Of a stretch of DNA of 64,000 bases, positions 26,050 to 30,599 are shown in pieces. Location of the stretch: positions 64,001-128,000 of IMG/VR virus record IMGVR_UViG_3300008267_000033. The stretch is one strand, 5' to 3'. This DNA is from a virus (taxonomy: Duplodnaviria > Heunggongvirae > Uroviricota > Caudoviricetes). Made by a program: the position numbers and the translations under genes. The notes beneath the pieces are model-generated. The model worked only from the letters and a program-made list of their open reading frames with translations, had not been told where the DNA came from and made no database searches. Positions within the stretch are counted from its first letter, which is position 1. Each line of letters starts with the position of its first letter.

Positions 26050-27213
26050 TCAGTGAAACATTAAAAATTGGTTGGCCACGTCCAGTCGGCTTGCACCCAA
26101 ATCGCCATGACCTGCAGGGAACACCACAACGTTCCATTTGGGAGCAGGCCCTTCGGGTATGCGATTCATTTCGTCATATGTGATCACAGTGTTGGGATCA
26201 ATTTTGTACTTGGCACCCAGATCCTGGCGGAACTGTTGCCAGGCGTCTGCGCTTTTTACCTGTGTGCGTCCTTTTTCGTCTTTCACATACTTGCCCTTGG
26301 CATCGGTCACAAACAACTCACGGAACATGTCTTTGGGCAGGGTCACAGCGTCTTTCACATGCCGGCCGGCATCTCGTTGTAGTTGAACTGTTTTGACTTC
26401 GCGACTTTGTGCACCTGGTGAAAACTGTTTGACCACGTTGTCCGGCGTGTCAGGGTCTGTAACTATTTGCCCCATCTTGGTGTAGAAGTAAAATTTCACA
26501 TCAGGATTGTTCCGGGCCACATCCATCATCAAGTTGTAGTATTCTTTTGAGAAGAAGTCACCAGCGTCATGTATGCGCACCAGTAGTTTGATGCCATTCT
26601 TGCTGGCCAATGCCGCGGCTTTTTTGACTTCGCTGTCGAACTTCTCCATGTAGTCTGACGGATGATTAACCAGGAAGTTTAGTGCCTGTGCCGCACTCAT
26701 TGAGCTGGCTGGGAACATCACATAGCCGCCTTTTCTGGCATAGCAGTAGGTCTGGCATTCGCCAGCACCGGGGCAGGTGATCACTTCCACAAACTCACCA
26801 GTTTCTTCATCCACCACAATGCCACTCAGGGCTGGCAAGGTCAAGTCATATGTGATGGCGCCTTCCTCTTTGCTCTTGGCCATTTTGGCATTGGTGCCCA
26901 GGATCTGTCTTGGCGGCTGCATGATCTGACTTTTTAAATCGTCTAGGTCCCACTCAGTACCACCGTCATCTCGAGTGATGGCCTTGATATTGCTGCCGTG
27001 TATGATGGGCTTGAATCGGTCAGCCTTGGTCTTGGTACCAGTTTTGATACGAGTTGCATAGTCTTGCATGTCTTGGGCGGACATAGACCGTTGTGGTGCA
27101 TCCAGTTTGAGTGCTTCGTCTGTGGCACCTTGTTCCACATTCAATACTTTGGCAGGAAATCCACCCAGGGTTCGGCCACGTTCAGCAGCTTCTACAATTT
27201 GTCTTATTCTCAT
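26050..27213 (-). CDS. Gp88-like Cys-cluster protein with head-targeting-like leader
   Basis: TCPGAGECQTYCYA, VRIHDAGDFFS, FYFYTK; N-terminus MRIRQIVEA. Confidence 0.6.
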   Translation of the reverse strand: MRIRQIVEAAERGRTLGGFPAKVLNVEQGATDEALKLDAPQRSMSAQDMQDYATRIKTGTKTKADRFKPIIHGSNIKAITRDDGGTEWDLDDLKSQIMQPPRQILGTNAKMAKSKEEGAITYDLTLPALSGIVVDEETGEFVEVITCPGAGECQTYCYARKGGYVMFPASSMSAAQALNFLVNHPSDYMEKFDSEVKKAAALASKNGIKLLVRIHDAGDFFSKEYYNLMMDVARNNPDVKFYFYTKMGQIVTDPDTPDNVVKQFSPGAQSREVKTVQLQRDAGRHVKDAVTLPKDMFRELFVTDAKGKYVKDEKGRTQVKSADAWQQFRQDLGAKYKIDPNTVITYDEMNRIPEGPAPKWNVVVFPAGHGDLGASRLDVANQFLMFH

Positions 27214-30200: not shown

Positions 30201-30599
30201 ATAAATGCCCAGGCTGATGTGTGGTTGATCAGCAGGCTGAACATACAGTTCTACATCGGCACCACCAATTTTTATGTTGTGCTCGTTGTTGTATTGATAT
30301 TTCTTGGCTGAAAACAGTTCCTGATACACAGGATCATCAGGCATTGTGACCACAATGTGCAGGTCAATATCTGAGTTTTTTGTATAAGAGTAGGCTGCGT
30401 TTGAGCCTGATATGGTGATGTCTTCGACGTCAAGATCTTTGACACCCAAAAATTCTTGAAAGTCTTCAGCAATGGTGAGTAGTCGTTCACGCACTTCAGG
30501 AAGCAACTGCTCGTCTCGCCCCCAGATTCTGGGATTGAGACGGCGGTGAAACTTTACTGCGTCGCCAAGATTGTAAGAGTCCAACTCATGAATGTTCAT
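27210..30599 (-). CDS. Polyvalent multi-enzyme polyprotein (NTase, zincin peptidase, ParB-like, MNT, ART-like, basic tail)
   Basis: GSNAAYSYTKNSDIDL (Pol-beta NTase), AHELVH (HExxH), QDGHHR (ParB/Srx), HGSRATG..SDTD (minimal NTase), TPKGIYFYP...LGFTSVYD...EP.QGVVLDP (ART-like); modules joined by GVAE motifs. Confidence 0.7.
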   Translation of the reverse strand: MNIHELDSYNLGDAVKFHRRLNPRIWGRDEQLLPEVRERLLTIAEDFQEFLGVKDLDVEDITISGSNAAYSYTKNSDIDLHIVVTMPDDPVYQELFSAKKYQYNNEHNIKIGGADVELYVQPADQPHISLGIYSVQHNSWISIPQRKRARVDDACVRDKVADLDARIHDAVRSGDQSKMATLADKIKAMRQAGLEQQGEFGCENLAFKILRNSGCIKLLWDARRAAQDRKLSLREAPRQRFRYGFGEGMQSQPYSTSDGVAASTKSFLEDSESDDNIVQDFIKHVTTELGIDPAPEIHLHTDPEWSERNQSFGRYDPESHTLNVSMPNRHVMDVLRTVAHELVHCSQNQQHGQLPDDAGETGSRWENDANARAGIIMRDWANSHPEHFARDSLEEGASGYIPKNKREAAMPQYAMALSVDIKPGQTGKEANKLALNTGRNGEPGLLMKTVNLREDIENFPIANVRRANGAIGTQGVNIEQAADVLTHAAGMQVSPDMSMRQLVDALKADPAAQQRLRQFVQKNPITVSALPDGSYHLQDGHHRTFLLNLLGDETVPAVVKEGVAEGKQPGQPVVDAILKVMPIAQEIWFHGSRATGKHRKNSDTDILVVVPDDLVGDQYLGVVRILQKLSSHFDNHDIQPTHPGYNIHLIAQEEGQLLWSNKQGMAEARKNPDQNKKYGMGKYELAAFAEDIRDQENWGVSMTAEPKLGINPQVGISEDTPKGIYFYPLEYFIQMVNRYQPLPWGDNMPYMQLFQYDRSNEMTQQTQVDPAQLRQALSQYCPEKIIQQVLDEPDSLYDDTPYWMIYDCLSRLGTNDETNIVRWNKVLRDLGFTSVYDPGAGWIAYNEPTQGVVLDPRIIRQHKMFVNRNPKVKARQYDIQELADAIMYNGDYDRERQRQQIRYGDPAEVKARLDVAKSMLRPFLGKTEKQAKEMGLDQAIKTAGEKVIEILRNANKSVTEAALGNVLSWPEVVNKINSAMKATGWNGKREGEDTFLFTAKGQETDDQWYIMLIANQGNGMFSYALGTVEDGDPYLDDAFKDVLPTTDASVSELLNIIRDAFGLHEQGVTENFADGKNPGRKGLAKRSGVNTKASVSSLRKTAKNSSGEKQRMAHWLANMKAGRAKAKRK
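27389..28922 (-). repeat. GVAE junction motif, 3 copies (27389-27407, 28598-28616, 28904-28922)
   Basis: GAGCAAGGTGTCACGGAAA, AAGCAAGGCATGGCGGAAG, AAAGAAGGCGTGGCGGAGG. Confidence 0.85.

Follow-up and report, generated by a model that had tools for sequence, protein, structure and literature searches.

The gene analyzed here lies in a 64,000-nucleotide window that spans bases 64001-128000 of a 146-kb viral record (IMG/VR IMGVR_UViG_3300008267_000033), which is estimated to be about 42% complete. A minus-strand open reading frame (ORF) at 27210-30599 is the sole long frame at this locus, encodes a protein of 1129 amino acids, terminates at a stop codon at 27210-27212, and matches its own viral record at 100%. 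We find that this protein consists of independent, exchangeable modules in a row. The gene probably encodes a polyprotein of capsid-internal (ejection) proteins from a T4-related giant phage. This polyprotein would be packaged in the head, processed there by the prohead protease, and passed to the host along with the DNA. Eight modules, designated S1, S2a, S2b, and S3 through S7, stand behind a 5-residue leader (Table 1). An earlier sequence-only reading had described a string of enzyme-like domains separated by short junction motifs. On translation, the ORF and all motifs cited in that reading were recovered at the expected places, as were the joints it had named (LRE-235, LRE-454, VAE-565, MAE-667, VTE-960, and VTE-1070), to which we added IHE-5 and LEE-395.

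The segmentation goes beyond chance because each inter-joint segment recurs elsewhere as a unit of its own, and in other orders. A search with the whole protein returned 1293 long proteins of 620-1976 amino acids. The first 454 residues of the long relatives are 80-91% identical, and the last 60 residues are mostly also common to them. Cores that are 85-91% identical carry quite different cargo, including Amidoligase_2, chitinase plus LysM, deaminase, NUDIX, GNAT, and ParB modules, and S3, S4, S5, and S6 recur in a few long relatives, where they are placed and ordered differently. In addition, 2028 shorter proteins consist of the core only and have the S2b peptide as their C-terminal end. In 3334 clusters of shorter proteins, the tail follows cargo of all kinds and is at least 87% identical. 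A very large metagenomic family has the N-terminal 454 amino acids and the basic tail as its constant chassis.

A sister genome, G002, whose DNA polymerase is 96% identical to that of this genome, carries a version of the gene (L013, 6001-9225) with the same core followed by a deaminase-like module, LysM, and chitinase/lysozyme cargo. This version has no basic tail; the tail is found on the next gene instead. S3 opens a separate 435-amino-acid gene in G002 that has the same tail at its end. The two S3 modules are 87% identical, and their alignment starts exactly at the joint (LDE/DVENFP versus LRE/DIENFP, with a slash marking the joint). Where the upstream polyprotein would stand, the G002 gene has the leader MRAHEFLYKKP (11-14 amino acids, MRAHEF...LDE). 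The existence of S3 as a separate gene from the joint onward indicates that genes fuse and split at joints. In a second relative, G001, the cargo of the family member follows the zincin and precedes the S2b peptide. A search for DNA repeats at the joints that could explain recombination found none beyond a 15-nucleotide similarity between the two LRE sites.

Other modules likewise occur as standalone proteins, and these begin with short leaders that resemble the T4 capsid-targeting sequence, MKTYQEFIAE (PMC8442874), in which residues 8 and 10 govern cutting (PMC9026906). Standalone S5 homologues start with MRAQEFITE/ARRNPE, MKIQDIVE/ARRNPE, and similar sequences (the slash marks the end of the leader), and standalone S6 forms start with MRASEFIKE/, MKAFEFITE/, or MRAQEFIIE/. 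Standalone S1 proteins begin with MNLKTLVE in Maribacter phage Molly and with MRKFSQLLE in Caulobacter phage Cr30. Among 101 short proteins that bear the tail, 66 have an M[KR]x(2-3)[EDQ][LIFVM] start. The shortest tail proteins, at 68-69 amino acids, are MKIKEIINE/ plus the tail and are reminiscent of T4's small, basic internal proteins. An [LIVMF]xE motif ends at residues 5-12 in 60% of 145 proteins that contain S5 or S6, and a slightly stricter leader motif is present in 17 of the approximately 190 genes of this genome (9%).

At the level of sequence, the joints follow the rule of gp21, the T4 prohead protease. Cassette starts were set solely by where BLAST alignments among family members begin, and an [LIVM]xE motif falls within positions -3 to +7 at 74% of 204 such starts (at least 20 partners each), compared to 14% of random positions. 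When distinct upstream contexts of the tail were counted once, P1 was Glu in 38 of 38 contexts and P3 was Val, Met, Ile, or Leu in 37 of 38, with P2 varying. Upstream of S5, P1 was Glu in 45 of 47 contexts and P3 was hydrophobic in all 47. The P1' position is free (Ala, Asp, Gly, Lys, Asn, Ser, or Tyr occur at the joints), and all eight borders of the 1129-amino-acid protein fit [IVLM]-x-E. Because P3 and P1 are kept while P2 and the flanks are free, the pattern points to a recognition site rather than to inherited linker sequence. The T4 protein Alt is processed at two sites, ITE-6 and LTE-619, the latter cut removing 63 C-terminal residues (PMC5694885), and by likeness to ITE-6 the leader MNIHE would be cut after IHE-5.

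A candidate protease is encoded in this phage lineage. Judged by DNA polymerase, the nearest isolates are Sinorhizobium phage Phosso and Agrobacterium phage Atu_ph07, which are giant phages with gp23-type capsids (PMC7824862). The relative G001 is a complete genome of 352,754 bp with terminal repeats, and its DNA polymerase is 81% identical to the one encoded here. This genome encodes a Peptidase_S77 protein (T4-type prohead protease; E = 4.5e-27, above the Pfam cut-off), whose gene adjoins those for a scaffold-like protein dense in [LIVM]xE-type sites and for a gp23-type capsid protein (E = 1.4e-99). Within the window, five of the six consecutive genes at 23310-30599 have leaders of the type described above (MRAQEFVHLKE, MIIDELFE, MTYKEILE, MRIRQIVE, and MNIHE). 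The sequence-only reading had proposed a head-packaged protein whose pieces are released by a protease, and this proposal is favored by the S77 protease in the lineage, by the T4-like leaders on standalone modules, and by the enrichment of [IVLM]xE at module borders. The exchange of cassettes, the leaders on the neighboring genes, and the structural match of S5 to a pre-ejectosome chain (described below) also speak for it.

According to the explanation we prefer, the polyprotein would enter the prohead core, where the gp21-type prohead protease of the phage would cut after the Glu of every exposed joint. The freed pieces would remain in the head beside the DNA and would reach the next host with it. 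Once in the host, they may modify proteins or nucleic acids by nucleotidylation, ADP-ribosylation, or proteolysis, and such modification would serve takeover or counter defense. Nucleotide-signal synthesis or degradation, suggested by the sequence-only reading, are putative functions. The nucleotidyltransferase (NTase)-zincin core and the basic tail stay constant, and the cassettes between them are exchanged among closely related phages.

The constant core begins with S1, and its prior designation as a Pol-beta-type NTase is consistent with its match to PHROG 36119 (E = 1e-37) and with its active-site motifs. The GS...SDIDL motif lies at residues 64-80, and the SGSNA, SDIDLH, and VELY motifs that make up the GS/DxD/E set are invariant across 40-95 homologues. 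The match of S1 to Pfam NTP_transf_2 (E = 0.002, 18.7 bits) is below the cut-off of 21, and some S1 homologues carry PF01909. A profile search of PDB gave weak rows only, to an MNT-type NTase and the DrrA AMPylase. S1 is also found as a standalone gene in Maribacter phage Molly, Caulobacter phage Cr30, cyanophages, and Lak phages.

The predicted zincin of S2a, which had been proposed from its HExxH motif, has its HELVH sequence at residues 341-345 (nucleotides ~29565-29579) and a downstream Glu366. All 50 sequences examined share residues H341, E342, H345, and E366. An AlphaFold2 (AF2) model built with 50 homologues has a predicted local distance difference test (pLDDT) score of 80.6. Foldseek matched this model to abylysin/jannalysin/selecase, IrrE, and SprT/Wss1 with probabilities of up to 1.0, and VIA gave Z scores of 8.8-8.4. 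The top rows of both fold lists are nearly all zincins, including YbeY and ArdC. No Pfam family was matched at its cut-off, and a search of the zincin alignment profile against the sequences of solved structures found nothing. The unit formed by the zincin and the S2b peptide (residues 262-454, window 29238-29816) is also matched structurally inside viral ESM Atlas cluster proteins, which additionally carry Fe/Mn superoxide dismutase, NT5C, or cytidylyltransferase domains. Its occurrence inside such varied proteins suggests that the unit acts as a general carrier.

Every family member carries a zincin with an invariant HExxH motif and Glu and with a peptidase fold, and the main rival explanation is a self-processing polyvalent protein. 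The built-in zincin would then cut the joints, either in the capsid or after injection, without any need for the prohead protease. The MPTase domains of polyvalent proteins were proposed to be cutters by Iyer et al. 2017 (PMC5512222), and the closest structural matches of the zincin include zymogens of minimal gluzincins. Nonetheless, we consider this alternative unlikely. A hydrophobic P3 and a Glu at P1 with a free P1' is the gp21 rule and is untypical for zincins, and core-only proteins retain the zincin though they have nothing to release. Zincin self-cutting fits less well because standalone modules and tail-only proteins that are free of a zincin retain the leader-plus-xE site, and because P1' is free. 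The likely cutter is the prohead protease and not the zincin of the core, although the two modes of cutting are mutually compatible.

Among the exchangeable cassettes, S4 is the one whose assignment is marked by Pfam matches above cut-off. Its designation as a second, minimal NTase agrees with matches to Polbeta (34.0 bits, cut-off 26.9) and NTP_transf_2 (33.3 bits, cut-off 21), with GS at residues 591-592 and DTD at 604-606 (GS...DTD at 591-606, nucleotides ~28780-28830). S3 had been described as ParB/Srx-like on the strength of a DGHHR motif, which lies at residues 539-543 (nucleotides ~28971-28985). This motif and a match to PHROG 1033 (E = 6e-6) lend weak to moderate support to that designation; the match to Pfam ParBc_2 (E = 0.006, 17.2 bits) is below the cut-off of 23.6, and an ESM Atlas feature search score of 0.90 serves as a lead only. 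For S6, the sole lead is PHROG 9130 'virion structural protein' (E = 0.0014), with no Pfam match and no usable ESM Atlas feature match. The Lys/Arg-rich end reported by the sequence-only reading corresponds to S7, a tail of 59 amino acids with an isoelectric point (pI) of ~11.8 that matches nothing in Pfam.

S5 had been called an ADP-ribosyltransferase (ART)-like module. The fold part of this claim is supported by structural modeling, whereas neither a Pfam ART model nor the canonical His/Arg residues could be found. An AF2 model of the S5 core (residues 668-880) built with 63 homologues has a pLDDT of 84.6. The best Foldseek match is 9k3a_B, from the pre-ejectosome of cyanophage A4 (E = 2.4e-5), followed by AcrIF11, RES toxins, and PARPs. 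Similarly, VIA gave a Z score of 9.2 for 9k3a_B and scores of about 5 for NatT, AcrIF11, ParT, MbcT, and diphtheria-type toxins. The alignment of S5 with 9k3a_B covers 178 residues at a sequence identity of 11-14%. Residues ~913-1611 of 9k3a chain B form the region that is structurally like S5, and the paper on the A4 pre-ejectosome mentions no ART-like domain in this chain (PMC12002296).

Pfam searches with S5 and three S5 homologues yielded no match at E values up to 10, so ART-PolyVal (PF18760) is not among the hits. An hhalign comparison of the S5 profile with a tail-bearing PF18760 ART-PolyVal protein was not significant and showed only a local 'LGY...V(V/I)LDP' resemblance. The ESM Atlas clusters for S5 do carry ART-PolyVal, and the feature search score of 0.81 is taken as a lead only. 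Polyvalent-type ARTs have an H-Y-D triad, with His on strand 1, Tyr on strand 2, and Asp on strand 5 (PMC5512222). The invariant residues of S5 are Tyr727 on strand 2 and Asp837 and Glu847 near strand 5. The homologues have no invariant His or Arg, and strand 1 reads SMT. ADP-ribosyltransferase chemistry is therefore only putative for this module.

The absence of the canonical His/Arg from S5, together with the lack of an enzyme signature in S6 and the tail, would also be expected if the modules were mostly noncatalytic parts that build or scaffold the head core and whose enzyme-like folds are relics, and T4 core proteins are likewise cut at many such sites. We regard this scenario as very improbable, because diverged homologues keep the catalytic residues of both NTases and of the zincin without change and because the cargo of sister proteins includes intact Pfam enzyme families.

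Several observations weigh against a polyprotein that is packaged and cut in the head. No Peptidase_S77, Gp23, or head genes were detected in the 146-kb record itself, a fragment that is about 42% complete, and the protease is thus known only from a relative. The gene sits among nonstructural genes (ClpA-like, DnaJ, and DNA polymerase), and of four copies of the T4 late-promoter word TATAAATA in the window, none is near the gene. The [LIVM]xE motif is short and is present inside folded modules too, and the invariant zincin of the core offers an alternative cutter. Without a recognizable triad His/Arg, S5 may not be a transferase. Among cultured phages, a megablast search with the gene found no match, and tblastn found only the standalone NTase and, in two cyanophages, the zincin; apart from the standalone NTase, the family is absent from the cultured phages of the collection searched.

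The location of the gene among replication and chaperone genes, and the lack of a recognized late promoter, would also suit an unpackaged cytoplasmic multi-enzyme protein that is made early and acts either intact or after cutting by a host protease. The joints would then be linkers that are inherited with the cassettes. This reading seems improbable to us, as it leaves unexplained both the T4-like leaders on standalone modules and the conservation of P3 and P1 against a varying P2 and varying flanks. Moreover, the chitinase/LysM cargo of sister proteins is sensible only at cell entry or exit.

Immediately downstream, the GP88 gene is translationally coupled to the polyprotein gene and is syntenic in G002; GP88 is a family without assigned function. 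The 117- and 458-amino-acid neighbors (window 23663-25389) match PHROG 727, 38880, and 3477 at different positions of these long profiles. Because the profiles are shared at different positions, the corresponding pieces are fused in other phages, which is another sign of modular fusion and splitting. Further leader-type genes on the minus strand are found at window positions 17604-17822 (MRWHEIAE/S) and 40655-41383 (MKINEILAE/A) and at 129636-130196 of the record (MREHIDLVE/A), and these are candidates for other head-internal proteins. A second joint-rich protein, of 726 amino acids, is encoded at window 14350-16530 on the minus strand and starts with MIINDLF. Its sites are QGVAE 41-46, QGMAE 466-471, QGVAE 536-541, QGVSE 589-594, and QGLNE 713-718. 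This protein has no module in common with the 1129-amino-acid protein, and its sole Pfam lead is the SutA RNAP-binding domain (E = 0.0017).

Table 1. Modules of the 1129-amino-acid protein and genes next to it, in window coordinates
Feature	Residues or length	Position	Strand	Description	Basis
Whole gene	1129 aa	27210..30599	-	Eight modules (S1, S2a, S2b, S3-S7) behind a 5-residue leader	
Leader	MNIHE	30585..30599	-	Ends I-x-E	Family consensus MNIxEL
S1	6-235	29895..30584	-	Predicted Pol-beta-type nucleotidyltransferase with helical C-terminal lobe; ends LRE-235	PHROG 36119 and motifs
S2a	236-395	29415..29894	-	Linker and predicted minimal zincin; ends LEE-395	Fold match and HExxH
S2b	396-454	29238..29414	-	Conserved basic 'SGYIP...' peptide; ends LRE-454	Sequence; model of low to medium confidence
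S3	455-565	28905..29237	-	Possible ParB/Srx-like module; ends VAE-565	PHROG 1033 and DGHHR
S4	566-667	28599..28904	-	Minimal Pol-beta nucleotidyltransferase; ends MAE-667	Pfam above cut-off
S5	668-960	27720..28598	-	Predicted ART-fold core (668 to ~872) with helical extension; ends VTE-960	AF2 and fold searches
S6	961-1070	27390..27719	-	Small acidic module, no fold assigned; ends VTE-1070	Recurrence in many proteins
S7	1071-1129	27213..27389	-	Basic tail, 59 aa, pI ~11.8	Recurrence in shorter proteins
Next gene (GP88)	387 aa	26050..27213	-	Start MRIRQIVE/A; start overlaps polyprotein stop	Pfam GP88 (E = 7e-31)
117-aa gene	117 aa	25036..25389	-	Start MTYKEILE/A; basic C-terminus	
458-aa gene	458 aa	23663..25039	-	Start MIIDELFE/A	
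118-aa gene	118 aa	23310..23666	-	Start MRAQEFVHLKE/D	

The protein resembles several known systems and differs from each of them. Polyvalent proteins of phages and conjugative elements (Iyer et al. 2017, PMC5512222) likewise carry several conflict-type domains on one phage polypeptide and were predicted to be packaged and injected. The domain kinds in common are zincin peptidase, ART, ParB-like, and NTase, joined in sister proteins by lysozyme, GNAT, NUDIX, and deaminase. Polyvalent proteins are recognized by at least two unrelated effector-type domains on a single polypeptide encoded by a terminase-portal phage or a conjugative element, and here we count at least five enzyme-type modules, in a lineage with a gp23-type capsid and T4-type head genes; the protein is polyvalent in the sense of that study. 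What differs is the fixed NTase-zincin core and basic tail, the joints that follow the gp21 rule, and the occurrence of the modules as leader-bearing genes. The same study placed the Alt-type ARTs of T4-like phages outside genuine polyvalent proteins (PMC5512222). In T4, IPI-III and Alt likewise begin with a short leader whose last residues are [IL]-x-E, Alt sheds a C-terminal piece of about 60 amino acids (at LTE-619), and the set includes small basic internal proteins and an injected ART. However, the T4 proteins are encoded by separate genes, whereas up to eight are fused here, with internal joints in place of leaders. The predicted ART fold of S5 also is not of the R-S-E type of T4 Alt.

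The giant phages phiKZ, 201phi2-1, and SPN3US have many head-internal proteins that are cut after Glu at short motifs. This group belongs to another lineage with virion RNA polymerases, uses S80 prohead proteases, S/A/G-x-E or A-x-E motifs, and long propeptides, and has no cassette-type polyproteins. Chain B of 9k3a from cyanophage A4 (PMC12002296), which S5 matches best in structure, is an ejection protein from inside the capsid whose structure has been solved, although A4 is a T7-like podophage, unlike the lineage examined here. Polymorphic toxin systems likewise join a constant trafficking part to effector cassettes that are exchangeable and are found as standalone genes too. In contrast to the proteins described here, they are bacterial and secreted, have immunity genes, and carry a single C-terminal toxin; our cassettes stand in a row, and no immunity genes were seen.

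New in this study are the leader-bearing standalone forms of S3, S5, S6, and the tail, the joint at which sister genomes show gene fusion or splitting, and structural evidence in favor of the zincin and ART folds. More tentatively, and at somewhat less than even odds in our judgment, this lineage may have an exchangeable set of injected proteins in which any small protein could be loaded in either of two ways, by an MRAxEFIxE-type leader or as part of a polyprotein framed by the NTase-zincin core and the basic tail, with [IVLM]xE joints. The core would then serve as a loading or activation device and not simply as one more effector. The preferred explanation also joins the polyvalent proteins with the capsid-targeting and gp21 system of T4, which have been kept apart in the literature, and the natural leaders and joints would be usable for loading foreign proteins into phage heads.

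Head-delivered proteins are a class to which the anti-restriction proteins and RNA polymerase modifiers known from T4 and P1 belong. Provided that the code holds, the head-carried, first-delivered proteins of uncultured giant phages would be predictable from sequence alone. If the broader reading is true, the thousands of cassettes bounded by this code would constitute a catalogue of first-minute takeover and anti-defense effectors, mostly of unassigned fold. The family comprises thousands of clusters at 90% identity, and the turnover of cargo between phages whose cores are about 90% identical is the signature of an arms race.

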